DNA of 64,000 bases, from contig JAYWIR010000027.1 of assembly GCA_036172245.1 (NCBI GenBank), positions 2,542,001 through 2,606,000 of the forward strand, in the 5' to 3' direction. This DNA is from Raillietiella orientalis. Its lineage: Eukaryota. The translations under genes and the position numbers were made by a program. Under the pieces are notes generated by a model, which worked only from the letters and a program-made list of their open reading frames with translations, was not told where the DNA came from and did no database searches. Positions 8,553-64,000 of the stretch are shown in pieces. The number at the start of each line of letters is the position of its first letter. Position 1 is the first letter of the stretch.

Positions 8553-9600
8553 TTTTTACCTAAACAGGCCCGGGCATTTTTTATTAAAATTTATAAATAA
8601 AATTTTATAATAAAGTCTTAAGTTTGTTTTTTGTTTTTCAGGCAGAACACATGGTTCTGCCTGTCATGGAACACTTGCTGTTACCGGCCCTCAGGCCGGT
8701 GAGGTCCTCACCGCTGGCGAAGAGGATGGGAAAACCACAAAAAAAGCAAAGAAAAAAAAACACGAGGGGAGGGCACTGTTTTTCGGGGAGGGGAGGACAT
8801 GGAAGGGATCACAGTTCACTGCGAGCGGTCCTCTGCATCCTGGTTTGGATGCGAACAAGTGCCGGTCTTAAAGTTCGTAACCGGCGCCATCCGGAAGCCT
8901 TCTCCATGGAGATGGCTGCCCAGTGAATGACATTCCAGCTTCTGTGGCCTCTCCTAGACGCAATCCATTTGTCCAGGATTTCGCGTATGCAGCGGAGAAC
9001 TGCTACACACGCGGCTGCTGGCAAAGCGTCCCGCATCAGAAGGCGACGGAATCATATGACCTTTGGATCGCTCAACGGAAAGTTCAGAGTCAACGATAGT
9101 CGATTCCGCATGGAATGGAGGGCGACGCAGTCGATGATCAGGTGGGGGAAGGTTTCCCTTTCCCCGGACTTTGCAAAATTGGCATCTACACTCCTACAGG
9201 TCTAGTGGGAGAGGCGTGCTCTGCAAAGGAGCCCCTAATGCAGCACAAGCAGCGCCGTCTCTTGCCAATCCAAGGGGAGGGTGCCACTGTCCCAACAAGC
9301 TGGAGGTTACTTCACCTCCTCCGGAGGTACCACGAGCAGCTCGCCTCAGCTCAGAAATCCTTTTGGCGGGACACTCGGGGTCATAGCGTCCGTCAGCTCC
9401 TGGGCTGTCCACGCACTTGACAGTTTCTTCCTTCCTACAATGTGGCAAGGCACTTCCCACCCTGCTGGAAGGTCACTGTCCCTTGTTTCCTTTAATGAGG
9501 GCAGCACTGGGACAAGGGGGTGGACGATGCCCACGCCAACTGGCGTGGGTTCCTCACGATATCCTGCAGCGGCTGTCGAGAGTACCTCCCTTCCCCGAGT
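8553..9600 (-). mobile_element. Copy A: decayed 3' fragment of L1/Tx1-clade non-LTR retrotransposon
   Basis: Minus strand GERETFPHLIIDC zinc-finger remnant, TPSVPPKG and DALPAAACVAVLRCIREI match copy C ORF2; followed by the family 3' module (hairpins 8641-8661 and 8683-8700, AATAAA, decayed terminal motif). The 5' boundary is approximate. Confidence 0.75.
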
Positions 9601-10619
9601 GTTCCGACCGCGGAACACTCTGGTGATGGTGGTCCGTTCTTGGGCAGACCGACGCGACGTGGCCGACCACCCCATCGAGCTCGGATGAAAAACCGGGAAG
9701 CCTCCCGAAGTGGCCGAGATTGCGTGGAAGCCGGGAAGGAAGGAAGAGGGGAGGAGGAGAAGGAATATATGAAGAGCACTGTCCTCGACACCCGGTTGCC
9801 GCGCAAGTCTGGAGCGGCGCCTCGGTGGGAAACCAGTCAGCGGAGATGACCTTTCGGTCCACCACAGTCCGCGGGAGGGCAGGTCGAGGATCATGAAGGT
9901 GAAAGAAGTGGGAGGAAGGAGAGGAGACCGCAGGCATCTTCACGGTCCATCCCTTGATGCCTCAAGGGCATTTTGGGGCAGTCCCTTTGGCTCAGTTTCG
10001 AGGAGCAGGCGCCTCCACGCTCTGCTTCCGCTCCTCCAGGGTGCATTTGCCGCCAGCGTTGACCCGAGCACGGACCTACTCCCTCTCCTCCACTCCCTCC
10101 GTACGCGGCGTCTATGGGGAAAGAGGGGAGGAAGTTCTGGTTGAGGGATCGGCTGCCCCAGGGGGCACGTGTTCCGTCCTGCCGCAGCCGAACACCGGCC
10201 GCCCCGCTGCCGACGTTTCGGCACGTCGAACGCTCCTCTCCAAGTCTCCTCCGGATGCTGTCAATGCTGACTGCGAGGGTGGCGAAGAAACCTCTCGAGG
10301 TCTCGCTCGTATCCCTCATGCTCCTCAGCAACGAACCGGAGTCACCCAGACGACTGCGTCTTGTCCCTGCCGCGTGGTCGTCCGCCAGCGGCTTGCGGAG
10401 ACCGGGCGCCTCTAGTCGTCCTGCAGACCGACCTGGAACACTCGTCTTCTTCGGCAGTCGGACAGACTTCCAGGGGAAACCACTGGCGCATCCCGTCCCT
10501 CCCTGCCCCTCCTTGCCGTCTGCCACGCTCCCTTCCCCACCTTCAAGAGTATACCTTACACTTCCGGTCTCCGTGCGGCGTCTTGTCGGTGAGCTGCTGC
10601 CGACCTGCTCCCTCGGGGC

Positions 10620-11410
10620 TGCCACCCGATCACGTCGGGGAGTTTATTTATAAAAAATAAACATACACGTCTGTGGCAGGACGTTTGATCCTGCCACCTT
10701 ACTTATATCTACGAGAAGGAACCTACTGGGATCTGGCACGCAGGCCAGCGGGGTTCGCCTCGGCAGCACAGGGGAAGGGGAAACGTACAAAAAGAAAACA
10801 AAACAAAACAAATAACATACAGTCAAAAATATGCGTTTTGGGGTTTGGGAGGGTTTGGGAAGGGGTCACTGTGTGCTGTAGGGCGTCCTCTGCATCATTT
10901 GCAAGATGCCGGCAAGTTCCTGTTTTAAGACTCCCAGGTGGGGCCATCTGGACGCTGTCCTCATGAAGAGGACAGCAAAATAGATGGCATCCCTGTCGTC
11001 CTGACCTGCTCTGACGCAAAGTGCAGGCAGGGCATCCCGAACAAAGGAGAGCCGTAAATCGTCCTTGGAGATGTCAACCGGGATCCGGAAGGTCGTTTCG
11101 AAATGTTCCCATAGAGGCCGGAGGGAAACACAGTCTACTAGCAGGTGAGGGAGGGATTCTCACTCCCCTCACCTGCGACAGTCCAGACCCGCCCTCCTTG
11201 GCGTCTAGTGGTGTCGGCGCGCATTTCAGGAGAGACCCCACTGCAACAGTAAAAGCGCAGGTTCCTGCCACTTCAAGGAGCTCTGGGGTTCACTCCAGGT
11301 CTCCCAATGTAATCCCGAAGAGCTCTCCCTAGCGCTGGAATGCTCGCGGAAGGACGCTCGGGGTCGCGGCATCCTCCAGCTGTCCCGTGGTGCAACCGCT
11401 CATCAACTTC
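10620..11410 (-). mobile_element. Copy B: 5'-truncated L1/Tx1-clade element
   Basis: Minus strand LKWQE and SLPHLLVDC match copy C; 3' UTR hairpins at 10673-10697 and 10733-10748; ends AATAAACTCCCCGACGTGATCGGGTGGCA. Confidence 0.8.
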
Positions 11411-29100: not shown

Positions 29101-29203
29101 GTGTGACAAGGGATACCGAATAGAATGTGTTCTGGAGATTAAGCTGATGGTTGCACGCAGGAATACTTCCTGCGTGAACGCAGTTAGGGATGGAATTTGT
29201 TAG

Positions 29204-30909
29204 TTGCCACCCGGTCACGCCGGGGCGTTTATTACAAATTCTCTATGATTCGTGGTACGAGGCCCCACTACGGCCAACTCAGCTGGACCTGCCGGGTCGC
29301 CGGTACGCAGACCGGCGCGACTCTCCTCGGCAGCGGAAGGGGGTGGGGGAAAAAACAAAAAGAAAAATAAAACATAAAAACAAAAAGATTTGGGAGGGTT
29401 GGGGAGGGATCACTGACCACTGGGAGGAGGGTCCATCCTTCGCAGGATGCCCTCGAGGTCCGTCCGTATAATTCCCAGTTGGGGCCATCTGGTCACAATC
29501 CGCAGGTAGCGGACTGCAAGTACGACGGCATCCCTGTCGTGGCTCGGTCTTCTGACGTTGCTCCAGCACGTCACAATCCCGCGTACGCAGCAAAGTGCAG
29601 CCAGGGCAGCGGCTGGACGCAGGGCATCCTGCACGAACAGAAGCCGAAAAACGTCTCCGGGCTGGCTGCCCTCCTGGATCCGTAGGGAGGCACGAAGACG
29701 TTCCCACAGGGGTCGGAGGGCAGCACAATCAACAAGGAGGTGGGGGAGGGTTTCCCGTTCCCCACACCTGATGCAGGTAGGATCTACTTGACCCCTGGTC
29801 CAGTAGTGGCGGCGTGCGTTGCAGGGTAGACCCCAATGCAACAACAGAAGCGCTGACTCCTGCCACTTCAGGGGGAGGATCCTAGAACCAATTAATACCG
29901 AAGGCCACTTCAGATCATCCGGCTGGACGCCGAGTAGCTCGCCCCATCTCTGAAGTCCTCTCGGCTGGACACTAGGGGTAGTGGCGTTTGCCAGTTCCCC
30001 CGTGAACCAGCCGCTTATCAAGTTCTCCTTGCCTGCGATGCGGCAGGAGACTTGCTACCTAGGCTTGCAGCTGCTGGAGAGCGCCCTCCTCAGAAAGAGC
30101 ATCGCCGTAGCTAGGGGGGTTGTCTCTGCCCACGTGCTTCTCGCGGGACACTGGAGTATCTTCCGCAGAGTGCAACGGGAATAGGCGCCGTGTCGCAGGC
30201 AGTTCCACATCTCTCCGTTGTTCTGGTTTATCTTCGCCCACGTGCCAGCTGTCTCCTCCAGCCATGCGGAGGAGTTGGCGGGGCTGCATACCATCCAGCC
30301 GTTTTCCTTAGCCAGAGTTGCCATGCGTCCCAGGAGAAGTCCGCATCTCTTGATCTTCCTGCCACGGCACAGAAGATAAGACGCGAGACCCTCCGTCCCG
30401 GATACACGGCTGGCAAGGATTCGGGCCGGAACGCACCAAGGGGTGCTCCATAACTTCGCTGCGATGGCGAGGGTTCGCCACCGCAGCTGAATCTCTACTC
30501 GCTCCATCGTCAAGAGGCCGAGACCGCCATCCCGACGTGGAGCACACATGTCCTTCAACGGGACTCGGGGCCTCCCTCTTCCCTAAAGGGCAATTCTCAG
30601 GAGGTCCTTCGTCCGTTTCTTCAACTCTCTGGGGACGGGGCAAACAAAAAGCAGGGGGCGGAGGATAGGAGCCGCGAACGCGTTCCACACTGCGGCCCGT
30701 TCCGGAAGGAGAAACTTGTCTTCCAGGAACGGGCCGATCGCCGTTTCCACTTTTTGGAGGCAGCCGGACCACGCTTCCGCAGTGGAGTAGTCCCCCAACG
30801 GCACACCAAGGTACTTCAAGCACCTCGCCGTGGGGATCCCCAAGCGGACCCAGTCCCGCTGCCCAGCCTACGCCGCACCGACTGGAACCACCGTCGACTT
30901 AGCCCTGTT
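29204..30909 (-). mobile_element. Copy C: 5'-truncated L1/Tx1-clade non-LTR retrotransposon (end of RT, thumb, CCHC zinc finger) with target-site duplication
   Basis: INRAKS, CLKYLGVPLG, PRRDGGLGL and CIRCGERETLPHLLVDC motifs; two in-frame TAG stops and a frameshift; flanked by GATGGAATTTGTTAG at 29189-29203 and 30910-30924 (the first 3 nt may be 5' microhomology). Confidence 0.93.
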
Positions 30910-31166
30910 GATGGAATTTGTTAGCAAAACTCGGTAGAACCCGAATCGACGAAAACGCTCCTGGCTATTGCGAATACTTGTATTAATTTTAACGTGCAAA
31001 CTTCGATCTATTCGTATTACTTACAAAACCATAATGAAACTAATGGGTTGATAAAACATTTTTTATTATATTAAAAAAACAATTTGGGAAAATTGGAATG
31101 TATCACAACGATACATTTGTAGTTTGAACTGATACATGCAATGCAGATCATTCTAAAAATTTCAAT

Positions 31167-43602: not shown

Positions 43603-46600
43603 CTCAAAGCATTCTCAACAACACGACCACACGGTGAGAAATAAATAATTTTATCACCTCATGCATGCACTGAACATTTCCTGGTTCGGAATTCGTCGAC
43701 TGCTTCATCAAACAAATACATGTAGGAAAAAAAAAAAAGGGGGAAGGGGCAAATTCACGGCCAACGGAACTGCATCTGCAACTGCTGTCGACTCGAGTGA
43801 AATATCTTGGCTATATCAGGTTTTCTAATTATTTTTAGTTTTACGGTTAACAGATAATTATGATGATTTTCTAACGGATGAGACTTCCGCAAAGATTTAC
43901 GTGGTTGTCAGTGAAACCACGAGGAAAACAAACGTTGACACGAAACCTTAGTATTGTTACTGATATCGTCTTTGTTATAAAAACTTCTTAGGTTTCGAAA
44001 TCATTGTAAAATAATAAGAAGAATCAGATCTAAAGGTATGCTTTTTGCTGGTATCGAGTATTCAGTGCTTCAGTTGTGCAGGAAGAAAGCTTCAAGGAGA
44101 TTAATTTAAAAAAAGATTTTCAAGCAACTAAATTTCCCAAGGATTTCCCAAAGAATTTTTTTTTTGTTTTTTAGCTTTCTGTACTTCCAAAGGTAATCAG
44201 CAAGCCCAGTGAGTTCGATGTTCGTGAATGAGTTGCTGCTGCAACAACTTCAAACCTGAAGAAATCATCCAGCAGTCGATCCTGCATCATCCATTACCCT
44301 TTGGACATTGAGCTTGAAGATGCCACGAGGAAAGCTTTGATTTTGTGGAATCCTAGACTGAAAAGAATGCCCGAGGAGGCATTCGGATCTTCAGGAAATT
44401 AACCAACAAGTTATAAGAGTCGAGGACCATTTTCTGTGCCAGCAACGGGGAAAAACTCCCATTCTACTTCTGCCAGAAGAGTTAGGCAGTTTCCATCTTG
44501 TGTTTTAGGCATCGGTTATCAAGAAGAATTAGCATTAGTTTTCGTTTGGCAGGAACTCATCAGTCCAAGTAATTTCTGATGGATTCTGGGATCTAAAAAA
44601 GGAAAACAAAGGAAAAATATATATCCATAACTGCAAAAATAAAGAGACGAGCTATTAGTAGATATCGTTATCATTCACAATTTCGATAGCAGGTGCCTCG
44701 TATCGCAGACTGAGACGCAAATGTAATTTTGTGCACATTCGTCTAAAAAAAAAGATTGGAAAAATCTCTCCCAAAAATTATTGTTTGAATGAATGGAATG
44801 CACAGAAAGAAAAGATGCAAAAACAAACAAACAAACGAAAATCCTGCACCCAACGGGTAGCTAAGCGAAGCCGCCGTCTTTGCTTCTATGTGAGAAATGC
44901 ATCAGCAACAGGAAGCCAGCATATGTGTAAAAAGGAAATCCAAGGGCGGGATACTGCCTCCTCTTGTTGAGACGCAAAAAATTCTCTCATTAAAGGTATC
45001 GTAACGGCCACTGTCCAGTAGTTGTATGAATTCCGTACGAACTCCATAAGACAACTGGATGCGCGCCTGTTTTAATTCAGAATCCATGATTCCTGAAGGA
45101 GCGAAGACAAAGCCACGAAGCCACAAATGGAAGTATACGATTGGCTTGATTGTAATCTCAAGGAATCTCAAAGCAGTTACCAAAGAATAAAAATTCCATC
45201 CCTTTATTTGCTTATCAAATCAGCTGTTGAATGTGCATTTATTGCTAGGCATATGGAATGTTAATCGAATACAAAAGAATAATCATGAAATAGGATTTCT
45301 AGGGATAAAGCATGCCAGTGTAAGCTACCCAAAAAACAGATGTCTTGAGATTACACCTTACGGAAATGAATAGGACAGAGATGAAGGCGAACATTTTTCA
45401 TAATTTCGGGCATTATTCGTGAGAGGAAACAACTGTTCTCGATAGGAATGTCGAAGGAGGCACACAATCCTTTCTTTGAGTCACCAAACAAAGAGTTTTG
45501 CATTCTTCAGGCTGGAAAACGCCCAGAAATTCGATTTTCGCCCAACATTTTCTTCTGAGGGACTCCTCCCTCTCCCCATTCAGATTTCGTATCGATCATT
45601 CCTTCCCATCAGAAGGCAATCGTCGGCCCGATCTGCCGTGACCTTAGGATTTCACGTAGAAAAGAGATCAGAAGGAAGGTCCACGGAAGAGGGAGTCCCA
45701 TTTTACGATCTGTCTCTGGATCCTCTGGGTAAGGAACTGGCCTCTGGAAAGGCAACACCTTCGACCTGAGAGGGGGACAGACCATCTCTGGGCTCGTACT
45801 CGCCTTTTCGGACTGCTGCTCACGCCCTAGTGGCCAGAGTTCAAGCCCCTTTCTTCGTTCCCCCTCCCCCACTGACCTCCCTACGGATGGACGCTCGGCT
45901 GTATTTCCAGTCTTCGTGTTCCTTCCGCGTCCTCCTTCCTCCTGCGTGCCTGGGCGGCCATCCCCTAACGGGATAGCGAAAAGTGTCGGTGGGCCCCTGT
46001 CTGTTGTTCCATCTTCTACTCCTTCTTCCAGAGCTCCCGGGAGCCCGTCTGGGCGTCTCTACGAGGTTCGCTCCCCACTACCCCGCGGTAGCGGATGGAA
46101 GTTTGCCCCGGGCACTTCGAGAACGGAACGGCCACCTCGCACCCTTTGGCTTGGCAGCTTCCGACAGCGCGAGTTGGCAGCTGAGCGGCTCTGTGGGAAG
46201 GAGGTTGGAAGGAGGAGGAGGAGGCGCTGACGCATTTGCACCCGAGCCAAGTGTAGGCGGCGCTCCCGAGGATTCTCCAAGAGGGACAGATCGCGGGCGC
46301 GCCCTTGATGAGGTGAGGTCTGCATAAGCAGTGGTATCTCCACCGAGCAGGGAAGGGACAGGAAGAACGTCTTATAAAGGGCGCCGTAGGTGGAGGCACT
46401 ACAAGTCCGCAGGAGCCGGTTGAGGGCGGAACCGCCACCCAGAAGGGCAGGGAGAGGGGGGGGGGCGACCTCCATTCACCTACCCCGCCCTTCCCCTTCA
46501 CGCGCGTTCCTTCCCGAGACGTCGAGGAAAAAACAGAGAAAGGAGGGTTGGGTGAAGAGATGGGGTCGAACGGGGTCAGGGGATGGCCAGTCCGTCTTTA

Positions 46601-46679
46601 CGTGGACCCAGCCACGGATGCGCAAAGGACGCTGCCCGAGAGGGAGGGGGAGATCTTGCAGGACGTAATTCCCCCGAAA

Positions 46680-46860
46680 GGTAAGAAGGAGAATCGTGGT
46701 CAAAGTCGGGAACTCCTGAGACTTGCCGGTCTGGGACCACATGCCCTACAGGCCCGCTGCAGTCAGCGTCTCCGTGCACCTTCGCAAGTCCGTCCCTAAG
46801 GGCATTTCTGCCTCCGTAATGTGCCATCTGGACCCTCATAGGTGCGAAACCGGACATGGC
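46680..46860 (+). mobile_element. Possible decayed non-LTR ORF1 remnant
   Basis: RRRIVVKVGNS*DLPVWDHM..VSVHLRKSVPK..CHLDPHRCETGH loosely resembles the ORF1 segment leading into a zinc knuckle. Confidence 0.2.
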
Positions 46861-48003
46861 TGCACAAGGATTGCATCACAGGTCCTTGGTTGCCGCCGTG
46901 AAGGATCCTTTTCCCCCCGGGAACACAGTCTCTATGTCGGAGGGGCGCAGGAGTCTCCGCGGGGCGGTCCGCGGGTGCGCCCGGCCTCTCGTCGGCGCCC
47001 TCGTCGTAGGCGGAACCGAGAGAGGCGTCCAGAAAAAAGACATCAGTCTCGCTTTCCCCTTTCCCCAAGTGGAGAGGGTTCTGTTCTTGACCCGATTCCT
47101 CCTAAGTGGCGCCCATCGACGTTCTTCCCGGGGCAAAGAGCCCCTCTGTCGACGGCGGGCGGCCGTGTACCACCCTGCTCTGCACCTCGCATAGCCACGG
47201 CAACGAGCTGTTCGGGGAGCGGCCTCTTCAGCCCGCTGACAACATTCTTCTCCTTTCCCCCTTCGTCTACAGGGACGATGCCATTCCGCCTTCCCGACTG
47301 GCTACGCGCGCGACTCCTCCCTCCTGCCCCTGTGGAATGGGGGGAAGGGACTCACTCTTGCCTTAGGAAGCACACGGTTCCTCCCCTCCCCTCTCCTTCT
47401 GCCCCCTCTGCTTCCATCTGGAGGGAAAGGAAGAAGGAAGGGCTGAGCTTTGTCCCAGGACACTTTTCTGTAGTGCAGAGAGCCGGAGGTGGCCGCTGTA
47501 TGCTTTCCCATCTACTCCCCCTCTCCTCTCCTTCCCCTCCTCCTTTATTGCTGCTTCTTCTGCCTCCTGTGGCGGCCCCGACGGAGGGGGGCCCCGTGAG
47601 GATACCCGCAAGAAGTGGGTGCTGCTGCTGCTGTCCCAACTAGGTCGTCCGTCCCTGCCACCACCTGGTCCAGCGGCGTCCGTTCCGGCTCAGCCTCCCG
47701 CCCTCAGTGTGGGCGGCAGCAGGACGACGGCGGCGGCGGCGGCGGCGACGGGAGGCGCTGCTGCTCGCACACGTGGCGTTCCTGAGGGAACGAAGAGTTC
47801 GAGCAGGTTTCCCGAAGGTGGACGCGAGGATGGCAGGTGCCGCCACTTTCGGGGGGCCCTCGTCGAGCTAGCCAGCTCCACCACCCCCTTGCGCGGGTTG
47901 CGGCCAAAGACCCCAACGCTCTCCTGTGAGCTCTCCTGCCTCTCCCGGGTCGCATGACCTCGAAGGAGGGGCCACATCTGCTACTCCTCCCCCCCTGCTT
48001 TCT

Positions 48004-51000
48004 CTAGTGCCGCCCTGGATCCTTCCGCGCCGCTGCTGCCCCCCTGACGGCTCTTCCAAGTGAGGAAGTCCGCAGGTAGGGTGAGGAGAGTCCTTCCCCG
48101 CTTCCTTTCTCACCTCGCCCTGCCCCTCCTGCCTTCGCCTTACCTCCTCCTCCTGCAGACGCACCTCCCCCGAGCACCCCCTGAGGCAGCAAGCGCCCGA
48201 GGTCCAGCACCTGCTGCGCGCTGCTGCTGTACCAAGAGGGCAGGAAGATCGCGAGGCAGGACAGGTGGAGGGCACTGCCTGGGAACGGCCAGCGGGACAG
48301 CCGGGTGCGCAGCCCAAGGGTCCAGAGTCTACGCCCTCCAGGGCACCTCTTCGCGGCGTAGTGGATAACGTCGCGGCTGACGACCTGTCGGAAGAGGAGG
48401 AGATGCAGAGGAGCTCCTTGAGAAAGGGGAGGCAGGATGTTCCGATCCGCTCCTTCGAAGGGTGGCTGAAGAGGAGTAGGAGGAGGAAGAGAAAAAAAAG
48501 GAACGGGGAGGAAGAGGTGGTGGTGGCGGAAGAGGAAGTGAGGATGAAGGCAAGGGCGTCGAGTAGAAAGAAAATGCGGGTGCTTCGGGCACCGCCCGCG
48601 AGAGGCGGAAGAGGTAAGAATTTCGCTGGTAGAGCGGAGATCGAGTCGACAGGAAGGAAGGCTTGCCCTTAGGTGGTTGATCCGAGATCGTACTTGCTTG
48701 TCGTTGACGAACCAGGCGAGCTTAACCTCGTGGACGGTAGGCGCTGAGGAGCAGTTGGCTTCCAGCATGCTTTTGTCGACGTCCACCGAGTAGGTCAGCG
48801 TGGGTCCATCCCCGATCATATCTACGGCACGAAAATCCTCCTGAAGAGACCCGCCAAGCCCCTACGTCCCTGAAAGGTCCTTGCTTTACCGATGACGTGC
48901 ATTTCTCCCTTCGCCAGGACTGTCTGGAAAGTGGGGGCATCAGCGGAGACCTCACAGCGGTACTTCCCAGAGGACTGCAGGGTCACCTCAGTGATGACCA
49001 CCTCCGTCTCCGTGGACAGGCGCACCTGGGGGAGAGGGGAAGTTTCGGGGAGGAGGACGGAAAGAGATGTCCTTGAAGTGTCCGGAAGGGGGGACCAAAG
49101 TGGGGGAAAACTTGAGGAAACGGCTGGAAGGTAGCGCACGCAGCTAGCGAGGGGTCCCTGATAGAGTGGCCTCCCTGCCCTAGGACACTGCTCGCTTCGC
49201 CACCGGCCGACTCCTCCGTGATCCCCTCACGTGTTTCTAGTCGAAGACGCCTCCCTCCCTTCAGTGGAGTCTTTTTCTGCCTCATCCCCTGTCTCCAGCC
49301 TCCCGGAGCAGCCGCACCACCCTATGGACGGAAGCGCTCCTTCCGGGAGAGCGGGTCGATCCCTTTTCCCCCATTCTCCTGAGAACTGTCCCCCCTCCCC
49401 TTCTCGCATCTCCGGAATCCTCCCCATCGGTTCTCCTGTGGGACGAGGCGTCGGGACGCGGGGAGGGGGAGGAGGCGGATGTCCCGGGCAGGAGGCAGCT
49501 GGGCGCGTGCCGGCCCGCCCTCCTCTTTTCGCCACCCTCCTTTCTTCATCCCTGCTGATGGCTGCATCCCTCCGGACACGTCCCGCTTCGCGAAGGAAAA
49601 TCTCTGGGGGAACAATCGGCTCGTTGCGGGGCGACGGGAACGCGGATGCGCTCTCCTCGGAGAAATTATCATCTCTCGGGAAGCCGCCGCATCCGGCGCG
49701 GGAAAAAGGGAAGTGGGTGGGAAGGGGAAATTCCCGGTCCTGTCCCAAAATAGGGGAAACTCCCGCCTTCGAACGTCCCGGAGATCTCCCGACATGAACG
49801 GACGACGTTGATCGGGAATGAGAGTGAAAAAGGGAGGGGAAAGGGAGCAGGGGAGCTACAGAAAAGAGGGAGGAGTTTCCTCCCTAGCCTCTCTCTTAGA
49901 TGACTCCGGAGCGGTCACCCTGGCTCCTCCGGCTCTCTTGACGTTGCCGTAAGTCAGTCCTGTGGCTCCCGTCCTCGTCCTTTGGAACTCCTTTGTGGTT
50001 TCCTAGGTGAAGAAATTAGGTTTCCTAGGTTCGGAGAGGAGAAGGAGACCTCAGGCAGGGTCACCGAAGAGGCTCGGGTGGCAATGCGTTTGTCTGGCTC
50101 CGCCACAAGGGAAGAGAAAGGACCTCTGTGCCCTCCAGTGGGGCGAGACCCCTCTCTGTTAGCGGCTGAGCTCTCCCGGGATGGCGGCGTATCCGAGGAG
50201 TGCGATTCGATAGACAACGGGCGGAGCGCAGCCTCATCGGTGGGCCTCCGTGCATGGTCCCTAATTGCTAGGTCCGCTGTGCTTCTAGGTCCCTGGAGGG
50301 AGACCCCGGTTCCGATTCCGAGAAGCGTCGCTTTGAGACCATCCACTCTCCCCGAATCGGATCGGAAAGCCTCATCAGGGAAGCATGCAGAGGGACCTCA
50401 ACGGCATCATGCAAAGGATGGACCCTCCCAACAGCGGACTGTGATCCCTTTCCGACCCTCCAAAGTATTTCTTTTTTTTGTTTTCTTTTTATTTTTCTTT
50501 TTGTTTCTTCCCCTCATCCCCCTCCGCTGCCGAGGAGAGTCGTGCCGGTCTACGTACCGGCGACTCGTCAGGTCCCGAGATGTATTGGCCGTAGTGGAGC
50601 CTCATACCACGATTGTACAGTGTTTTTAATAAACGCCCCGGCGTGACCGTGTAGCACTCCCCGAAGCGGAAAGGGGGAGATGCCCGCCCTGTCTTGGGAT
50701 GGTCGCTCCATGAGCTCGATGTGGGCATCACCAGGTTCAGGCGACCGCGCCAAGAGGTCAGGCCGAAGAAAAGACCGACTCGCCCAGGGCTGAGAAAATA
50801 AGCGCACCCGAGCTGAAAACAAAGCGCCGATGTTCCGTGACCTTGATTGCCCGCATTGTTGAGACCGAAGAGCCTCGATGCCTGCTGGATACGCGTCTTC
50901 ATTTTGGGGGCCGAAGAACCTCGCCGCCTCTCGGAACGTTCGTAAGAGACGAAGGTCACTGCTGTGCAAAAGGGGAGGATGCGCATCCTACGTCCCCCTT

Positions 51001-54000
51001 TTGCACTCAAGTCACTCCATCCCCGTTCACTGCTCGCGAGAGAGATCATCTGGTACTGCTACTGAGGGGGAGCGGTTTATGCACTGCCTCCTTCCTCCCG
51101 AGCTGCTGCTGCAAAGGAGGTCGCGCGAGAGAGGGCTCCCGGGTGACTTCAGTGCGGGGAGAAAATCTGCGTCGCCGCCTCTTCCGGAAGATCCAAAGAG
51201 CGCTGCATCACCGAAGGGAGGCCAGCAGTCCAGCAAGGAGGCTCTCCTCTAGTCAATCGTTCGGAAGTTTGCCTCTTCCCTACCTTCCTAAGACCTCAGT
51301 GACCCTGAGCCTCTCCCATTTCGAATTCCTCTTCCTGGCTGCGCGCTCTCCAGGGACTTCTGCTCCCTCCCACATTCCCTCTCCGCAATGGAGAGGGGGT
51401 CCTCTAGGCGGTTGACGAGGGAAGAACGCGGCCGGGCGTCTGACTCGTCGCGTCTCTTGCCCCGAGGGAGGCGGCACCCGTTGCTCAGACCCTGCTACGC
51501 ACCCGTTCCCTTCCTGGGGGAATTTCGTCCGGGGCGTTCACTCGATAAAACCGGAGGGATCTCCAGAGGGAGAGAAAGAGAAGTGCAGGGGAGGAGGAGG
51601 GGGGGTTCATACGCCCTCCTCTCCCAGGTTTCCCGAGGGCGGCGGAGAGATTCGCTCAAATTCGAGAAGGACGGAGAAGGAGGCGCAAATAAGGGGAGGG
51701 AGACGAAAGTTCGCTCCCGGAAAGCCTCGCTTCTCCAGCCCTTTCTTCGTGAAAGGGGGGATGTCGTTGGCGCATCGATCTTCCACTCGTGGCGGGTTGC
51801 TCCCCTTTGGCGCCTCCTTGAAGGGGGGAGGGGGGAGTTGGCCTTTTGAGAGCCCCCTTTCGCGAGAGGCGGCTGGGGAGAAAGGACGCCCCATCCATCC
51901 TTCTTCCCCCGCGACTCCTCTCGAGGAGGAGAACCCTTCATGGGTCACAGACTTCTCCCCGGAAGTGGGTCGTGACCACCCCCCTCCCGACCACCCTCAC
52001 TCACGTCCACATTCACCCCCGGCAAGGGGAACGTCTGCACTGCCTGCTCGTCGTTGGGGGAGAACCGGAAGAACTCAAGGGCGTCCTTGTACCACCTCAG
52101 GCTGTAGAGGGGGTTGCCCTTCAGGTCGTAGAGGCAGGTCAGCCGGACGGTGTCCCCGGCTCTGGGGTGGTGCGGCACGTGGAACCTCAGGATCTTCACC
52201 GCCGAGAATGTCCCTGCGTGGATGGTCGTGGTCGTGGTGGTGTCGTCGTGGGAGGTCTCTGCTGGAAATAAAAAAGGGAGTCATCTCCTTCTTGGGTCGT
52301 CGGCGCCTCCTACGTCACCAGGGCACGCGGACTTGCCTGCCGGCCTCGGCCTTGGTGGCAGCACTGCTGCTTCTCCCTCGGCGGACGCGGGAAGAGGGGG
52401 GAGCGAACGCGCTAGCGGGCGGGAGGGAAGGCGCAATCCACTCCTGCCCCTCAGGATCCTCGGTGGTGCTCTCCTCATGGACCGACTAGGCGGGCGTACA
52501 GGTTCCCCTCCCCTTTCCTACTCCGGGAGGTGGACGGCGCAGAAGGAAGGACTCCGAAGGGTGAACCGCCGCCCTCGGAATCCCGGGAGTGTAGTCCCGA
52601 GAGCGGGCAGTGGACGGAGAACCCTCGATTACCATTGAGCCGGGAAACGGGAAAGGGTTTTTCCTTCCACACCCTTCTCTGAGGCCGACCTCAAGGACCC
52701 CAACCTGCCACCCCCCCTCCCCGCAGAGTCGACGCTCCAGCGAGTAGATCGCCCGAGAATGATCCCGCGGATGCTCGCGCCGCGGGCAATGTTCCGAGCT
52801 ATGGCCGTCGCGCGATCTCGATGACCTCCAGGCAGGTAAGCGCCCGCGACGAAGGAGGGGGACGAGACCGGACAGCGCGGGTGTCTCAAGCCCCTCGGCA
52901 ACCCGCCTGGAGGCTCCTGACCTGAGGAACGCGGGGCTTCATTGCTCAGTCGAGCCGCGCCCTCCGTAGGCTGCTGCAGTGGAGGGGCGCCCGGAGTGCC
53001 CGCCAGCTCGTGCAGGAGGCGAGCCCATCTATGGAGCCTCCGCTGCCGCTTCCCTCGATGGGGGCGACTCGCAGACGGCTTCCACCAGCGACTCCGGAGA
53101 AAGCGAGTCGCCGCTTCCCCCTTCTTGTCTCCATTCCTCCTCCTTCTCTCTTCCTCCTCCTCCTTGCCTCCCCGCGTGCCCCGCAGTTCTCTACTGAATG
53201 TGCCAGCAGTGCGCTCCGGGTCGCGGAGGGAGGTTACATGCTCCCAGTCGGGCGGCTATCCAGGAGAGAGGGTCATCCGCCGCCGGGCAAAGACAGAATC
53301 AGTCGAGGGAAGCTCCCAGGGTTGCTGCAAACATCCATCCACTCCACCTCACCGCTAAGCGAGGGCTCAGCGCTCTTTCTGATCGCGAGTGCCCCGCGAG
53401 CGCGCCTCGGCCTGCCTTCCGTCCGACGCGCCTCCTCGACGGTCACGCGTGGCCGAGGCAAAGGGCCGAGGCGGTGGGGGTGCATCCATCCGCGTGGGCG
53501 GCTGTTGAGCATTCGCGGCTCCTGCGAACACAGGCATGGGCAAGGATGACCCGACGAGAACACCACGAGTGGGGAAGACGCGGTTCTCCGGAGCAGCTAG
53601 CAGCCCTGCGCGGAATCCGTGTCGCCCTCGCAACCCTCCTCGTTTCGACTCACCCCCCCCCTCCCCCTACTTTCCCGTCCCAGTGCGGCGCGCAGCCGGA
53701 TGAAGGAAGGGGGAGGGAAGAGGCCACCGAAGGCGACGGCTTAGAGGTCGACCGGCAGGCGGTGTGAGAGCACGTTCTTCCGATCGGACGCCGCGACGCT
53801 GCTGTCGCACCGCTCGCGCGGTGCTCACAAGGGTAAGCATGAAGAGGAAGCAGGAAATTTGAACGGGACCTTGGGACGAATGAGGGAGGAATGAGGAGAC
53901 TAGGTGCCCACGGGTATCCGAAGGACGCTGCCGTTTGGGTCCGAAGGCTTTCGATGTCGACCTGGTCCTCCATACTCCTCGGGTGCACGGGAAGCAGGGA

Positions 54001-57000
54001 GAGGGCTGGGGCTAGCGGAACGACAAGGAGAATGGGCAAAGGGAAGGAAGGGAGAGAACCGCGAATGAACGCGAGGAAGCGGCGCGGCAGCTGCCCTCGT
54101 CTGCCCGGCGCCGCCTGCCGGAAACTGTGACAGCCATCCTCGCCTGAGGCTCCATCTGACCAACTTCTGAAGCCCTGACCGCCGGATAGTCGCCTACCTT
54201 CTTTCCCCCGGGAGCCCCGAAAGTCCTCCGATAGCTGATGACAGCGTCTGCCCTCTGCGGCCAGGATGCATGCCCCGGACGTCACGGAAAGAGGAGACGC
54301 GGAGTGGCTCCATGCGCCTTTGGGAATTCGTCCCGCTGTGGGGACGTCTGGAATCTGGGAACCCTGCAGGAGGGCGAGGGGTGTGTAGCGCTCCTCAGCT
54401 GGGGGATGGCGACCTCGGCGCGCGCAGTGGACAGGCAATAGGCGGAGGTGCAAGAAGGGGCGACCACGTCGATCGAGCCTCCGAGATGGCGGGGAGCCTC
54501 CAGATTATCCGCCCAGAGGCGAGGGCGGAAGGAGAAGGAGCGTGCGAGCGAGCAGGGAGCGAGAGTCAGTGCCCTGCCCCGCGACGGCGGTGCACTCCCG
54601 CCGCGCCTCCCGGCGCGAATCCCCCGGGAGAGGAGCGCCGCTGAGCAGTGGTTCATTAAACCCCGGTAGGAGAGATTTATGGCTCCAGCGGAGGATGCGG
54701 TGCCGCTGCGCTGGGGAGCCGGGATCCTTTCCCTCCCCCCTCATTCCTTCCCTCCCCGGGACGCACGGATCGATGGGCGGGACCGACCTTGCCCCGTTCA
54801 GGGGCCAACCTGAGCACCGGAATCCTCCACTTCCGCCCTCTCTCACGCTCGTGGCGAAGGGAGAAAGAAGGAGCGGCTGACCCAGAGCACCCACCCGCAA
54901 GAGGGGAAGAAGGAAGGGGCCGGAGGCGCGAGAGGAGGAGCAAAAGGAGGAGGAAGGGAGTCCGTACGGCCTCCGCCGCCGCCAATGCTTCCCGGCGCGT
55001 CATCGGGAGAGCGGAGCGGGGAGAAAAGGGGAGTGCGGGGCTCTTCCTGCCTGCCCGCATTCGGCGGGTGGCCATGCGTGACTCCCCGAAGTCGTGGTAA
55101 GGAGCGGCGTGGTCGGTCGATTGGGCGGTCTCTCCAGGCAGAGTGCCGCCGCCATCCGCCAGGGGAAGGGGGGGGGATGCTTTTTGGGAAAGTTCGACGG
55201 GTATCCAGCGTTCAGTCTCTTTCCCCATCCCCCTTCCTCCGTTGAGGTGCACTCGTCGCCTAGGAGACGGGTTCATGCGCGCGTCCTTCCGCTTTTCCTC
55301 TGCAATACTGCTTGCATCCCCCTCATCCTCGGGGAAGACCAGGAAGGAGGCGCGTCGCTGCCCCTTCCTTGGCAGAGCGCCCTCCTTGGTCAGCAACCTG
55401 CCCCCGTGGAATTCCACCAGGACCCTCGGTCGTCGGGCGACCTCCGTCACCGGCGTGCTCCGGAAGGAGGACAGACGCCTAGCCCCGGAGGAAAGGGAGG
55501 AAGGAGGGGTATAGAGGGGGTTCCGAGCTGCGGTGTCTTGCCCGGCGATCCCTGACCGGTAGACGGCCGTTAATCAGCTGATACCATTTGGCGACGACCC
55601 TTTCTCGGGAGCGTTCCGGAATAGCGCCGCCCTTTGATTCAAAGATGGATGGCTCTTTCGTTCATTCATGGGGGAAATGTTTAGGGGGGATGGGTGCGAA
55701 GGGCTTTTAGCCTCAACTCCCCCCCCCTTCTCACTTCCTTCGCCAACGACTGCAGCAGCCTACAGAACAAAGCTGGAACAGTCCGTGAGACGGCGATCCT
55801 CTGGGGAGGCAGTCTGCGTCTCCACGGGAACAGGGAAAAGGCTACACCTTCCTCCCACCCCCACCCTCCTTCCTTCCTCCGCACAGTCGAGGTCATTCCG
55901 ACTTTGGTCAGCAGATGTGCTGATTGTCTCGTTGGGCCGAGCGCGCGACCGCAACAAAAAGCAAGCCGAGCGGCGATGGGCCTCGCGGGGGAAATGGGGA
56001 CGCTGGCTGCTCAGGGGTGGTTGCTGTGCGGGTTGACGCAGCACCACTGCTGTTTCTCTTCACTCCTCTTCCTCCCTCCCTTCCTTTTTTATTTTTTTTT
56101 GCATTCTTGTTCCCGTTGCCGCCTTCCCCCTTCGTTGATTGCGTGTGCGCGCGCGTTCTTACACCGCGAAATCTCCGGCGCTCCGGCGAGGCGCTGCACA
56201 CCATGAAAACTGTTCGCTTTGATTATCTGCTCTTCAAGTGCATCCACACTTCTTTCCTCCCGTCGAAAAAGTCCAAAGGTATTCTTTCCGAAGCGAGCAA
56301 ATGTTATTCCTAGCACCGGGAGGCGGGAGGGGGAGAAAGCGTTGTGCTTTCACATCTTCCACCAGTACAACCTCTTTATGACTGTCTTTTTGCGGTTGCA
56401 AATTTCCACTTCCCTCTCCTGGCGGTGTTTGGTCTGCAAACACTCGAAACGTCCTAGGAAATGAGGAAAACGCCCTGAGAAGGAAGAAATTCCCTCGACG
56501 GAGAGAATGGTCTCTGCTTCATAAGCCGCCTTCCGTCGAGGCCCCGGAGGTGTTGAACGATTTTTTTCCTCCTCCTCCTCCCCCCCCTTTTTTTTTTTAT
56601 CATAGCTTGATTGGATTTGAAAGAACTTGATCTTCAAGAAAACTACTACTCGCCTGTCGTCCTCGTCGGGGGCGAAATAGCCCGTAGTACTAGGAAATTC
56701 TGCTTCCTACCCTCATGGAGGAGTGAATGCGAGCCGAATCTTATGACCGCATCGGCGATCAGGGGATCAAATGGGAAGCGGATAAATGTCGAGCACGAGT
56801 TGGGCGCACAGACGGGGCAGCAGTCGCTCTCTCCAACCGGTTGCTTTGACCGAAGGCAGACTGGCAGAAGGCGCTTCCCTCTAACGCTCTGACACTCTGA
56901 GGTCCGCGATTCGGGCAAAGCCAGAAGCTGCTCCCAAGGCGGAATCGTGGGCGACCATCGTGCAGGGGGAGGGGGGGGGGCGTTTCAGAGCAAGTGGTCC

Positions 57001-59158
57001 AGCCGCATTCCCTGCGAGTTCCCGGGTAAGCGCGAACGACTGGGAACTCTCCGAAACGTGATCGCAGTTTGCGCACTCTGGTTTGCGCGGGACACATCGG
57101 CTACAGCCACCTGGCGTTGAACACGCACACACTTTCCTGGCACAAACACAAGGACACACTTCGTGCGACCGCGGGTCGACTTCGAACACGCGGCAGCCGC
57201 CTAGGCCTAGCAGCGGTAGCCTAGGCGAGAGGACTCGAAGCTCGCCAACAATGCCGGCGGCGTGACCACGGCAACCTGAGGAGTCCGCTCTCGCCCCGTT
57301 CCCGTTCCGCACATCTCCTCCCCCTCCCCCCCTCCGAGTACTGGCAGCGGGCAGCGAGGGTGTCCGGGATTTTCTTCCCTAATGTTGCGTACCTGCCGAT
57401 TTCAACGGGGAGAGAAGGCAAGTCCAGCTGAATGGAGACGTAGGGCTGCGATCCGTCTCTCCGAATCGCCATGCAAGCCGAGCTGGCGGAGCCCATTATC
57501 TCTCCTTGACGCCGCCGTTTCAGGTATGCAAAAGTAATTTTGAGAAATGAATTCGGTTACTGGGCACGGCAGATTCCGGCAGGGACTCAGTCCAATCCGG
57601 AAGAGAGCAATGGCATTTTAAATTAAGATAAAAAAGAAGCGGAGCGAGGAAGGGGGGAGGAGGACCGGGAAAAAAAAATAAATATACACAAATAAATCTC
57701 GGAACAATAGGAGAGGGAGCCCAGGTCTCCAGGGAGACGACGCTCGCGTTTCAAACTCGGGCAAATGAACGAGGATAGAAAAGGAGGCCTGCTTGAAATT
57801 CTTTAAGAAGAGCGGATCTTCGGCGTCGAGTCCGGGAATGATAAACTCCTCTGAAACGAATAATAGCTTAAAATGCAAACTTAATGGGATGAACATGGGA
57901 AATTGAAAGCGGGATCCTTCCTCACTTCCACCTGGGAATAGGCAGCCAGCTCTGCGAAGGCAGCCGCTGTGCCTCCCTCCTTTTTTTTTCTTCTTTCTTT
58001 CTTCCAGGAGGGATGGGAGGAGTAAAGGGGGAAGGGAGGGGAGAGGGTTCTTCATTCGCCTCCCTCCCCGAATCCCTTCCCCAGTCACCTCCTTTTCTCC
58101 TTCTCGCCCTGCCCTCCTTTCCGACCCCGGGGGGCACGCCACGCACGCACTCTTCCTAAAAATAAGTGCCTGGATGAGCTGCGTCAGAGCCGCTTCGCTC
58201 TTGGTGACGCTAATGTAGAGGGATTTTTTCTGGGGCTCCCGCGAAAGTTTGTCTTCGAAGTCCGGGACGGCCGGGAAGAGGCTCCTCCCATCATCGCGCA
58301 GCAACCGGAGACACGGCGAGTCAGCTCTGGAGCGGACAGCGGCGGCGACGGCGCGGGGACGTGAGGGCAACAGGGGGAGGAGGAGGAAGAGGAAGGGATC
58401 TCTGCTCTCATCCGATATCACTTTCTGGACCTTCTGTCGCCCGCGAGAAGGGCGACTCCTCCCTCCCTATCAGGATGCGGGTGGGCAGGCAGACTCCCCG
58501 CTTGCGTCCTGGAAGCCGCGGAAGATCGCCCTCAGCGGTCACCAGCCAACTTCTTCCCCCCTCTTCCCTAGGAAGAGCCTGCTGGAGGCGAGGCCGGAAG
58601 GAGGAGAAAGGCGGCGAGCTCGTTCGCTTCCGGGTCTTAGGCTTCCTTGGGTCTTAGGCGCGACCTCCCGGCTGGGCGCACGGGAGCGGCGCGGCGAGGA
58701 CTCCTCCGGGAAGCGTGGGACCTCCTTCTTGGGAGGAAGACCGCGGTCCTTTTCCCTCGAGGGAGACCCGGGGGAGAAGCCCAGGAGAGTGGGGAAGCTG
58801 CGGAGGAAGAGAGGCAGTCTCCTGGGCGGGCAAGAGGAGCGTGCGCACTCATCTGGAAAACGGGAAGAGGGAGGATCGGCCTATGGAGACCGCCGCACCT
58901 CACCGCCCGTGGTGGCGGCAACCGGCAGCGCTCATGCGCTCCCTCCGGCGGAAGGCAGAAGAAGAAGGTGGAACGAAGGGATCTCGTGAGCGCGGAGGTT
59001 GGGAGGCAGGACCGGAGGTCCGCCTCTCTCCGAAGAGAGGACCCACGGGAAGAGACCCTCCCCCCGCCCCCTCCCTCTCCCGAATCCCTACCTGCTTCCT
59101 GGAGGCAGCACAGCAGGAGAGCGAGGCACGGCAGCCGCGCGAGACCGAGGAGTCCCAT
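48004..59158 (-). CDS. beat: Beaten-path (beat) family Ig-domain protein; exons 59158-59092 (signal peptide), 52261-52005, 49025-48890, 48821-48694, 48384-(48165 or 48004); 3' end uncertain
   Basis: MGLLGLARLPCLALLLCCLQEA joins in phase to VRLTCLYDLKGNPLYSLRWYKDALEFFRF..FPLPGVNVD, SSGKYRCEVSADAPTFQT, ANCSSAP..KLAWFVND and LHLSCLA, the typical beat V-set plus C2 Ig signature. The paralogue cannot be assigned. Confidence 0.87.
50362..50656 (+). mobile_element. Copy D: ~295-bp extremely 5'-truncated L1/Tx1-family insertion in a beat intron
   Basis: RDLNGIMQRMDPPNSGL* matches the copy C ORF2 end; T-rich tract, hairpins and AATAAACGCCCCGGCGTGACCGTGTAGCA; flanked by CTCCCCGAA(T/G)CGGA at 50348-50361 and 50657-50670. 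Confidence 0.88.
57040..57260 (-). mobile_element. Possible decayed gag-like zinc-knuckle remnant in beat intron 1
   Basis: CSRCVPRKPECANCDHVSES resembles the PKCANCxxxH knuckle of non-LTR ORF1 proteins. Confidence 0.25.
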
Positions 59159-62100: not shown

Positions 62101-62524
62101 ATGACCGTTGCCATGGCATCGGCTCCCTAATCAGCCCTGTGCTCCGATGGATGGCTGCCCTTCGGAAGGTCCTCTCCCCCCGGAGTTGACATCGAGTTCC
62201 CGAGGAAGAGAGAGCGCGCGAGTTCCGTGCGGGGTCGAGCGGGATTTCCTAGAGGTCGCGAAGACGTTTGGCCTTCCACGGCAGTGGACCCTAGCAGGTC
62301 GTGAGTGACCAGCTCTGTTGCCTCTGCTGGCGTTCGTCTTAGGCTCGACGACTGGTCCCTCTCGGAGGTCGTAGGCGAACAGGGCTCCTGAAACGACGGT
62401 GGAAACTCACTCCTTCCGACCCGCGCCCCTTCCCCCATCGGCACTGTCTCTCTGGTCGCTTCTAGGGGTCCTTCAACGCCCTGTTCAGACGACGAGCAGA
62501 TCCCCTCCGTCTCCCGCCTACCAG

Positions 62525-64000
62525 CTATTTTTTTGTTTTTGGAGCTTTTTTCTTCCCCTTTCTATTGGCTTGCTGAGTGCTCAAAGAACCGCTCGCCTCC
62601 TTTGGGGTGTCTCACGAAGCTCTTCAAGAATTGCCCACACCACCCGGGGGTGCACATTAACTCTTCAAGTTAGGAGGCACCCTGGGGGACCCCCTATGAA
62701 TCCAGGAAGGTTCTGCTGGAAGAATTCCGTTCCTCTCACGTCGTAGTTGCTTCCTATCGACCCGAACACGCCGGGGCGTTCCTGAAAATGTGAAATAACC
62801 TCATAACTTGTGGTTGGTCACCAGGATCCGCCGGGGCATTTATTATAAAAAAAATCATTATAAAAGTCGCTGTCCACATTGCAGATTCGTGGTAGAACAT
62901 TTGGTTCTACCACACGCGAAGGACTTGCCAAAAGCCGGTACGTAGACCGGTGAGGTCCGTTCCATTGCGAAAGGTGAGGGAAAACTACAAAAAAAAAAAA
63001 GAGAAAAAATAAGGAGAGGGGAAGTTTCCTAGGGAAGGAAGGGGAGGAGAGAGAAAGGATCACTGTTCACCTAAGGACGTCCTCTGCATCCTGTTCAGGA
63101 TGCTGACAAGTGCTGTTTTGGCATTGTCCAGGTGGGTCCATCTCGTCGTGCAGTGGATGACGTCCCTGCCATTTCGCCCTCTCCTTGTTGCGTTCCAGCA
63201 TGCCACGATTCCACGGACACAGAACTGCTAGGGACGGCTGGAAGAAGATCGGTACGCCGGGGGAAGAGTCGGAAAATGTCCTTTGGTTCGCCCGCCAGTT
63301 TTCCTAGGATCATTGAGAGACGGATCCAAAGAGGTCGAAGGGCAAAACAGTCTACGAATAAGTGCGGGAAGGTGTCTTTGTGGCCGCCCCTTTCACAACC
63401 CCTTTTACCTGCCTCCGATCAAGCAGGAGACCCCCATTACAGTGGTTGGCTACTGCCAATTGCCCTCCTCAGGAAGGGTGTCGTTGCCGCGAGGGGTTCC
63501 GCATCGCCCACGCGATTACGAAAGCAACTCCAAAGACGACCACTTCCTTATTCTCTCTGGAGAGACCCCCTGGAAAGAATCCGCTCCTTGATTCCTCCTC
63601 TGAAGAGAACTCCGAAGGTCCCTATTTCTCCCAAGGTTCGCTTCCCGAAGAGAACGAAGCGCTTGTTGACCCTGTGGAGGGGTGTCAATTAGCTAGCTCG
63701 CCAATTGGCAGCTCCATGGTCCCCTCGAAAGGGAGGGTCTCCCTTTTCGAGGTAAGGGACGACTCCCCTTTCGCAATCGGAGAGGAACAACTCCGAAGGG
63801 CTCTTTGATTCCTGGAAAGACCTTAACAGGCTGACTTCCAGTCCCAGACAGTCAACGAAAGCATCCGGCCTCTGGCTAACATCAAGCCGCACCTTAAAGT
63901 GGCAGGAGTCGGCATTGAAGCTGCTGCACTGGAACCTTCCGTGCAACGCCCGCTGACACCATTGGACCCGGGGGAGGAGGTGGGGCCAAACTGCGGCAGC
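62525..64000 (-). mobile_element. Copy F2 of the second repeat family (62525-62740 and ~63540->64000), interrupted by copy E
   Basis: Both halves match sequence that is contiguous in F1 (12480-13215). Confidence 0.5.
62814..63470 (-). mobile_element. Copy E: 5'-truncated L1/Tx1-family element nested in F2
   Basis: Minus strand DTFPHLFVDCFAL and the ORF2 end; hairpins at 62889-62913 and 62934-62951; ends AATAAATGCCCCGGCGGATCCTGGTGACCAA. The 5' boundary is approximate. Confidence 0.82.

Follow-up and report, generated by a model that had tools for sequence, protein, structure and literature searches.

A hairpin-bearing 3' tail in an L1-like retrotransposon family of Raillietiella orientalis as a candidate shape-based RNA end signal

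A 64-kb stretch of Raillietiella orientalis DNA (contig JAYWIR010000027.1, positions 2,542,001 to 2,606,000; referred to here as the window, within which all counts of the element given below were made) carries five 5'-truncated copies, A to E, of one non-LTR retrotransposon family, that is, a family of the type without long terminal repeats (LTRs). The region at 50440-50656, which runs from the stop codon of copy D to its final base, is read here, at somewhat better than even odds (a probability of about 0.55), as the 3' tail of an L1-like family whose RNA would carry a shape-based 3'-end signal of the kind used by 'stringent' long interspersed nuclear elements (LINEs). The presence of conserved hairpins and the absence of poly(A) suggest that the enzyme of the element recognizes its own RNA by shape, as conserved hairpins together with insertions that start exactly at the last nucleotides of the tail are the signature of stringent LINEs. 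A first-pass annotation, made from the sequence alone, had placed the module at this span; its position, the order of its motifs, and the five copies were all found where it had put them. The copies, together with the parts of copy D with which its tail opens, are the following.

50362..50656 (+), copy D: about 290 bp, 5'-truncated, with the last ~27 codons and the entire 3' untranslated region (UTR); 80.7% identity to C over 50369-50652; flanked by target-site duplications (TSDs)
29204..30909 (-), copy C: at 1.7 kb the longest of the five and also the youngest; it retains the 3' UTR and, in its coding part, the reverse transcriptase (RT) thumb region and a CX2CX7HX4C knuckle
about 62815-63400 (-), copy E
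about 10620-11410 (-), copy B
about 8556-9590 (-), copy A
50442..50444 (+), stop codon TGA of copy D; the TGA and its neighbors are conserved in 5/5 copies
approximately 50468..50510 (+), T-rich tract of the 3' UTR of copy D, with a C-rich stretch before it

On the sense strand all copies share one order of parts, namely the end of the open reading frame (ORF), TGA, a C-rich and then a T-rich tract, a first hairpin (H1), a spacer that varies between copies, AATAAA, and, within the following stretch of about 23 nt, a short GC hairpin (the terminal hairpin). They had been described as five diverged copies; five are indeed present, but D and C are so close (80.7% identity over 285 aligned bases) that they amount to about four independent lineages. 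Copies B, A, and E are older than C, with which they share 36-54% amino acid identity, and contain stops and frame changes. In one public DNA sequencing run (X1), 144 contigs fall on the element of copy C only (covering 29184-30958) and none on its flanks, so that the element is a multi-copy repeat with those borders. This run matched the window with a small share of words, no RNA run was among the matches listed, and no variant in H1 or in a second hairpin (H2) was seen among the contig rows listed.

The exact 3' end of the element was read from the two copies that are flanked by TSDs, whose positions are given here with those of AATAAA and the terminal hairpin.

50348..50361 (+), 5' TSD of copy D (CTCCCCGAATCGGA); its 3' partner at 50657-50670 matches in 13/14 positions
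30910..30924 (-), 5' TSD of copy C (CTAACAAATTCCATC); its 3' partner at 29189-29203 matches in 15/15 positions
50628..50633 (+), AATAAA of copy D, 23 nt before the final base of the element
50637..50651 (+), terminal hairpin of copy D (CCCGG-CGTGA-CCGTG), with one broken pair
29210..29233 (-), AATAAA (29228-29233) and intact terminal hairpin (CCCGG-CGTGA-CCGGG, 29210-29224) of copy C, which ends ...GGCAA (29204)
62821..62844 (-), AATAAA and terminal hairpin region of copy E
10625..10648 (-), AATAAA and terminal hairpin of copy B (CCCGA-CGTGA-TCGGG, with a compensated A-T pair)
8556..8585 (-), AATAAA of copy A, followed by extra A's (six, of uncertain origin) and a degraded terminal region

The 5' duplicates of C and D lie exactly where homology between the copies starts, and a TSD length of about 15 bp is as reported for human L1 in PMC4245944; judged by eye, the TSD of copy D may be as long as 17 nt, provided that its 5' copy contains a 5-nt slip duplication. 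Copy C ends ...GGTGGCAA, 24 nt after AATAAA, copy D ends ...GTAGCA, 23 nt after it, and neither has poly(A). The 23-24 nt from AATAAA to the CA end suggest that the transcript is cut there, in which case the enzyme would start at the end of the UTR and not in poly(A). A single defined 3' nucleotide without poly(A) is expected if reverse transcription starts at a recognized 3' end. Both 3' TSDs begin with CT (29203 and 50657), so that ...AG would be the end of the priming strand where the nick lies; as there are only two cases, this could reflect a preference of the endonuclease, microhomology with the RNA end, or chance.

The same spacing also speaks for a tail that is mainly an RNA polymerase II (Pol II) 3'-end processing module, built from a U-rich upstream element, AAUAAA, a spacer-filling hairpin, and a CA site, with H1 and H2 serving cleavage efficiency, RNA stability, or export instead of being recognized by the reverse transcriptase. 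AATAAA is present in 5/5 copies, it stands at this distance from a ...CA end in both copies with exact ends, and a long U-rich tract lies upstream; moreover, PMC5381506 describes the L1s of lizard, frog, and fish as ending with AATAAA and as having tracts of poly-C and of poly-T in their UTRs. However, a polyadenylated RNA copied by a poly(A)-dependent enzyme should leave A-tails, which C and D do not have, and processing leaves unexplained why the loop and stem of H1 form the best conserved block of the UTR. We consider it unlikely that processing is the main role of the tail, although such a role would be compatible with a shape-based signal and does not exclude it.

H1 was located in all copies and, like the other hairpins, sits at homologous positions.

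50544..50561 (+), H1 of copy D (GCCGGT-CTACGT-ACCGGC), with a 6-bp stem
29299..29316 (-), H1 of copy C (loop CTGCGT)
62934..62951 (-), H1 of copy E (5 bp, loop CTACGT)
10732..10749 (-), H1 of copy B (CTGGC-CTGCGT-GCCAG)
8683..8700 (-), H1 of copy A (ACCGGC-CTGAGG-GCCGGT)

All five H1 sequences are present as the first-pass annotation had written them. With up to one mismatch, the motif CCGGYCTRNGKRCCGG occurs four times in the window, compared with 0.12 expected occurrences and 0/100 shuffles that reach this count, and the variant of copy B occurs once (0.00 expected). Pairing is kept in 28/30 cells, and three of the six pairs have changed on both sides. The covariation score of H1 was matched by 5/500 shuffles, and in slid controls 17-47% of the cells were paired, with 0-1 pairs changed on both sides. 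A basal helix around H1, noted by eye (CTGCCG/CGGCAG in copy C), was dropped as a candidate because its partners shift register between copies and RNAalifold predicts none.

The loop of H1 reads CUACGU in D and E, CUGCGU in C and B, and CUGAGG in A, with C1 and G5 invariant in 5/5 copies. A pseudo-triloop is described as a loop with a transloop pair that joins residue 1 to residue 5, residue 6 being bulged (PMC1636360). The H1 loop fits this definition, as had been claimed, in the sense that its sequence is compatible with it; in copy A, C1 would be equally able to pair with G6, which would give a tetraloop. The apical loop of hepatitis B virus (HBV) epsilon (CUGUGC) and the loop of human immunodeficiency virus type 1 (HIV-1) TAR follow the same pattern of six nucleotides with a possible C1-G5 pair, a triloop, and a bulged residue 6, a likeness to H1 that lies in the sequence pattern alone and implies no homology. 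In HBV epsilon, the pseudo-triloop is described as an anchor for the viral reverse transcriptase (PMC1636360). The same source treats the pseudo-triloop as a motif proposed for protein recognition in many unrelated RNAs, which, along with the conserved structure, would also suit hairpins that bind another factor, either the ORF1 protein of the element or a host RNA-binding protein, and that act in the assembly of the ribonucleoprotein particle, in localization, or in translation control, but not in placing the reverse transcriptase. Such a partner would be compatible with the present data. Nevertheless, binding of a factor of this kind leaves the precise tail-less 3' end unexplained, and the window contains no ORF1, because all copies are 5'-truncated; we regard this explanation as improbable.

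H2, the second hairpin, was found in three of the copies.

62889..62913 (-), H2 of copy E, with a 10-bp stem and a 5-nt loop
10673..10697 (-), H2 of copy B, with 10 pairs (one G-U) and a 5-nt loop
8639..8663 (-), H2 of copy A, with a 10-bp stem and a 5-nt loop

The sequences of these three hairpins had been quoted correctly in the first-pass annotation, except that the stem of copy A has 10 bp and not 8. In E, B, and A all cells are paired (30/30, one of them G-U), and four pairs are compensated, none of them in CpG; two of the compensated pairs are adjacent and show transversions on both arms. A stem of 10-11 bp was reached in 27-56 of 2000 shuffles per copy. Over all five copies, 38/50 cells are paired and the covariation score was matched by 4/500 shuffles, all 12 unpaired cells lying in D and C (12/20 of theirs). 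When H1 and H2 are taken together, pairing falls to 17-48% in slid controls. The hairpin had been called weaker in C and D. It is perfect in E, B, and A but absent from D and C, where no stem of this region rises above chance (the longest has 5-6 bp, the same as in shuffles), and H2 candidates in these two copies were rejected.

RNAalifold, applied to a plain (unbiased) MAFFT alignment of the tails, returned H1, H2, the terminal hairpin, and a weak 4-bp helix. The consensus energy of -17.24 kcal/mol compares with -7.5 +/- 2.8 kcal/mol for column shuffles (z = -3.5; 1/300 as low). Segment identities, for which the D-C pair was excluded, place H1 (69%) among the best conserved parts of the tail, along with the block of AATAAA and terminal hairpin (70%); the values are 58% for the ORF end, 43-45% for the spacers, 35% for the flank, and 51% for the H2 region, where pairing is perfect in E, B, and A all the same. 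Within the terminal hairpin, which is present in three to four of the five copies, 22/25 cells are paired and one pair (in copy B) is compensated. The earlier statement that pairing is kept while the sequence changes is borne out by three compensated pairs in H1, four in H2, and one in the terminal hairpin, with the reservation that one of the H1 cases is possibly a product of CpG decay.

A number of observations weigh against a shape-based signal. The outermost pair of H1 is mismatched in E and B, and a stem of 5-6 bp, such as that of H1, is ordinary by chance in any single sequence. The compensation in H1 of copy B (C-G to T-A) sits in CCGG, with CpGs on both arms, and could be the result of neutral CpG decay, given that decay of both arms restores pairing in about half of the outcomes. 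The terminal hairpin is paired no better than shuffles (266/500), and in D, E, and A it has decayed. H2 cannot count as a constant component of the module and is dispensable at least in the C/D subfamily, as neither C, the youngest copy, nor D has it. No TSDs were found for copies E, B, and A, and the exact ends therefore come from 2/5 copies only. Furthermore, single-sequence folds of the whole UTR show no extra stability over shuffles (z = 0.01 and -0.26), and the antisense alignment folds equally well (-17.66 versus -17.24 for the sense strand). Finally, related sequences without structure can exceed the shuffle control, and five copies from about four lineages are too few for R-scape-grade statistics. 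The covariation evidence is thus suggestive, not conclusive. A strand call from folding energy was likewise dropped, as sense and antisense are about equal.

These points can be read to mean that the hairpins are functionless, that is, short inherited palindromes (CCGG-rich in H1) in a GC-rich element, with covariation arising from small numbers, shared ancestry, and CpG decay. The small number of lineages, the frequency of 5-6-bp stems by chance, the H1 compensation explicable by CpG decay, the terminal hairpin without significance, the single-sequence fold z near 0, and the equal folding of the antisense strand would all agree with this explanation. It is, however, hard to reconcile with H2, which keeps every pair in three decayed copies at 51% identity and whose four non-CpG compensations include transversions on both arms, or with the rarity of its stem among shuffles, the consensus fold z, and the loss of pairing in slid controls. 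We hold functionless hairpins to be quite improbable.

A search with the Rfam covariance models, which the first-pass annotation had suggested as a check, matched no family, with 0 gathering-score matches across the whole window, and this too counts against such a signal. At E values up to 10, the region 50300-50750 gave four weak matches to families of bacterial or phage type, far below their thresholds, and a ribozyme or other known RNA family was rejected for lack of an Rfam match. An nhmmer search of the 64-kb window with the tail alignment returned the five copies and one 24-nt terminal fragment only, with no partner short interspersed nuclear element (SINE) among these. The fragment (62757-62780, -) lies 34 nt downstream of copy E and matches only the extreme end of the element (AACGCCCCGGCGTG... 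with the hairpin), with the terminal motif matched exactly in 14/14 positions. Either a local duplication or an insertion with extreme 5' truncation may have produced it, and the latter would agree with initiation at the 3' end. When metagenomes were scanned with AATAAAYGCCCCGGCG, 119 loci were obtained, none of them homologous to the tail beyond the pattern. An unrelated metagenome repeat (loci L014, L016-L019, L054, L067, L081, and L084, with several contigs from one sample), which has units like AATAAACGCCNGG and an inverted pair AATAAACGCCCCGGCGTTTATT, was picked up solely through the common 16-nt search pattern.

The coding part of the element points to an L1-like protein. Copy C contains a single 499-codon frame that is broken by three TAG codons only, and it has RT-thumb-like motifs as well as the CX2CX7HX4C knuckle, the latter read directly in P0001. 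The knuckle corresponds to a sub-threshold match to the Pfam family zf-RVT (E 2.9e-4; 21.9 bits versus a cut-off of 27.5), a domain that is carried by 25/30 Atlas matches. A Pfam scan of 59 ORFs of the window found zf-RVT in copy C only, and no RT or endonuclease. The database relative P0021 (59% identity over 259 residues) carries RVT_1, and its best match among solved chains is human L1 ORF2p (E 7e-40 to 5e-39), while R2 proteins score no better than 7e-17. A phmmer search against representative proteins gave 16 weak matches, nine of which were scanned with Pfam (four zf-RVT, three RVT_1, one RNase_H, and three nothing). A search for longer homologous proteins with P0001 and P0020 returned none, sequence searches of the Protein Data Bank with P0001 and P0019 gave 0 matches, and no relatives of P0001 were found in the collections of viral contigs and genome contigs. 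The ORF of the element has a G+C content of about 60% or more.

Within the last codons of this ORF lies an inverted repeat, GCATCC-N6-GGATGC (50404-50420, + in copy D; 4-6 bp depending on the copy), with homologous sites that precede the stop by about 25-45 nt in C, E, B, and A; near the stop it is among the best conserved nucleotides. Its stem bases are invariant, so that a coding constraint (on an I-L-x-R-M peptide) and an RNA structure cannot be told apart.

An AlphaFold (AF2) model of the last 214 residues has a pLDDT of 78.8. When this C-terminal model was submitted to Foldseek, the top five matches were all human ORF2p (probability 1.00 and TMq 0.57-0.60, at E values of only 0.023-0.15). 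VIA-align superposed the model on residues ~856-1265 of human ORF2p with Z 12.8-14.1 and a root-mean-square deviation of 3.5-3.8 Å over 179-198 residues, compared with a Z of 8.2 for R2Tg and 3.6 for the next unrelated chain, values of Z that are somewhat inflated by the helical fold of the domain. The C-terminal domain is accordingly modeled with a fold like that of the RNA-binding C-terminal region of human L1 ORF2p. We call the element L1-like rather than a strict member of the L1 clade, because the solved LINE proteins among the matches comprise only L1 ORF2p and R2-type proteins and other clades are compatible. In human ORF2p, the C-terminal segment and its neighboring domains cradle the stem-loop of the template (Alu), and recent structures show that a stem-loop can be held beside the poly(A) tract. 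The modeled C-terminal domain could thus be the part of the element's protein that holds the hairpin.

For a tail with a shape-based signal, we envisage the following order of events. The sense transcript would be cut about 23 nt downstream of AAUAAA, at CA. The ORF2 protein would then dock on H1, with its C-U-R-N-G-N loop, and on the terminal hairpin between AAUAAA and the end, and in some subfamilies on H2 too. Target-primed reverse transcription would subsequently start at the last nucleotides of the UTR, which would yield new copies without poly(A). We infer the binding of the hairpins by the ORF2 protein, the use of AAUAAA as the cleavage signal, and the setting of the start of the complementary DNA (cDNA) by this binding.

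In stringent LINEs, ORF2 proteins are reported to bind the 3' stem-loop, and both the pairing of the stem and the sequence of the loop are needed (PMC4176376). UnaL2, ZfL2-1, and ZfL2-2, which belong to the L2 clade, resemble the present tail in that they have a conserved stem-loop close to the 3' end of the RNA and that insertion is independent of poly(A). In contrast, short tandem repeats, for example TGTAA, are given as the ends of their tails (PMC3747384), whereas the present element ends in unique sequence after AATAAA. Furthermore, the binding region of UnaL2 and ZfL2 lies between the endonuclease and RT domains, a region that is missing from all copies here, and the present protein is L1-like and not of the L2 type.

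The first-pass annotation had called a recognized 3' signal unusual for the L1 clade, which is overstated, as a stringent-type hairpin has been published for plant L1-clade LINEs and tail-less families for green algae (PMC3472496). In the plant lineage (LINE1-1_ZM), a conserved 3' hairpin with compensatory stem mutations and conserved loop nucleotides has been read as recognition of a specific template, and Ohshima also describes an algal L1/SINE pair and lists, in Table 1, L1-clade families without any 3' repeat (PMC3472496). L1-1_CR is the green-algal element named with a stringent 3' end. Given these families, a poly(A) tail is typical of the L1 clade but does not define it. Stringent recognition has even been proposed to be ancestral for L1 (PMC3472496, PMC3747384). 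The plant and algal elements nevertheless differ from the present one in their loop motif UCU and flank motif CGAG, both unlike this tail, in the poly(A) with which the named examples end, and in their hosts, which are plants and algae and not an animal; the algal L1 is paired with a SINE, whereas no partner was found in the 64-kb window.

In vertebrate L1 elements (mammals, lizard, frog, and zebrafish), C/T-rich UTR tracts and a terminal AATAAA occur as they do here, but poly(A) follows AATAAA according to PMC5381506, whereas the present element has none at its two exact ends. The knuckle of vertebrate L1 is given in the same source as CX3CX7HX4C or CX2CX8HX4C, compared with CX2CX7HX4C here, and the G+C content of ORF2 as 37.9% for mammals and 35.9% for one non-mammalian row (Table 2, PMC5381506), compared with about 60% or more for the frame described above. 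The 3' UTR of human L1 is said to have no such stem-loop (PMC10830416), unlike the hairpin-bearing tail of the present element. PMC5135761, in turn, proposes a stem-loop conserved in the 3' UTR for human L1 and Alu as well. The modeled C-terminal fold and the TSD length of about 15 bp are features in common with human L1.

Recognition of LINE 3' tails by shape is already known, including in the L1 clade, and what sets the present case apart is the combination of an L1-like animal element with a GC-rich coding sequence, a multi-hairpin tail, a retained AATAAA, and no poly(A). Four 16-nt motifs of the tail had no match in the full-text literature, and the supplements of Ohshima 2012, which lay outside this search, may hold animal L1-clade cases; a combined-topic full-text search for an L1-clade 3' UTR stem-loop and poly(A) tail in fish returned no paper. 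It is tempting to go one step further and propose that an animal L1-clade lineage kept or regained stringent recognition, in which the C-terminal region of ORF2p docks on the pseudo-triloop and terminal hairpin, cDNA is made from the cleavage site, and poly(A) is skipped, but we regard this proposal as tentative and rather doubtful. If true, such a lineage would be a natural counterpart to the relaxed mammalian L1 and would show how the specificity of L1 for its own RNA was lost, or how it might be regained.

The choice of template by LINEs is well worked out for the L2 type and debated for L1, the builder of much of mammalian genomes. An animal L1-like family that lacks poly(A) and relies on hairpins would offer a comparison both for the shift from stringent to relaxed recognition that has been proposed and for cis-preference. 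For annotation, the tail provides a precise 3' boundary of the repeat family. Since the evidence comes from five old or truncated copies, it is to be taken as a lead, not as a result.

With regard to the surroundings of the copies, the window is AT-rich overall and interspersed with GC-rich islands. A long GC-rich stretch (46000-64000; 59-66% G+C), possibly of other repeats or CpG-rich DNA, is the site into which copy D is inserted; both of its strands hold numerous long open frames, and 15 plus-strand frames were scanned without a Pfam match. On the opposite strand there is a sixth fragment of the family (63876-63977, +), which shows 72% identity to the copy C protein over 36 residues and runs off the end of the window, so that its tail falls outside. 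Copies A and B have the same orientation and lie about 1 kb apart (9600-10620, -); a 250-codon open frame between them (9891-10643) has no Pfam match and no similarity to copy C or P0021. Pieces of host genes are found at 21905-22972 (-) and 32324-33828 (-), and these include an LHFPL-like (Lipoma HMGIC fusion partner-like) exon (Pfam E 6.9e-18) as well as, just upstream of copy C, tetratricopeptide-repeat exons (TPR_19, E 1.8e-10).

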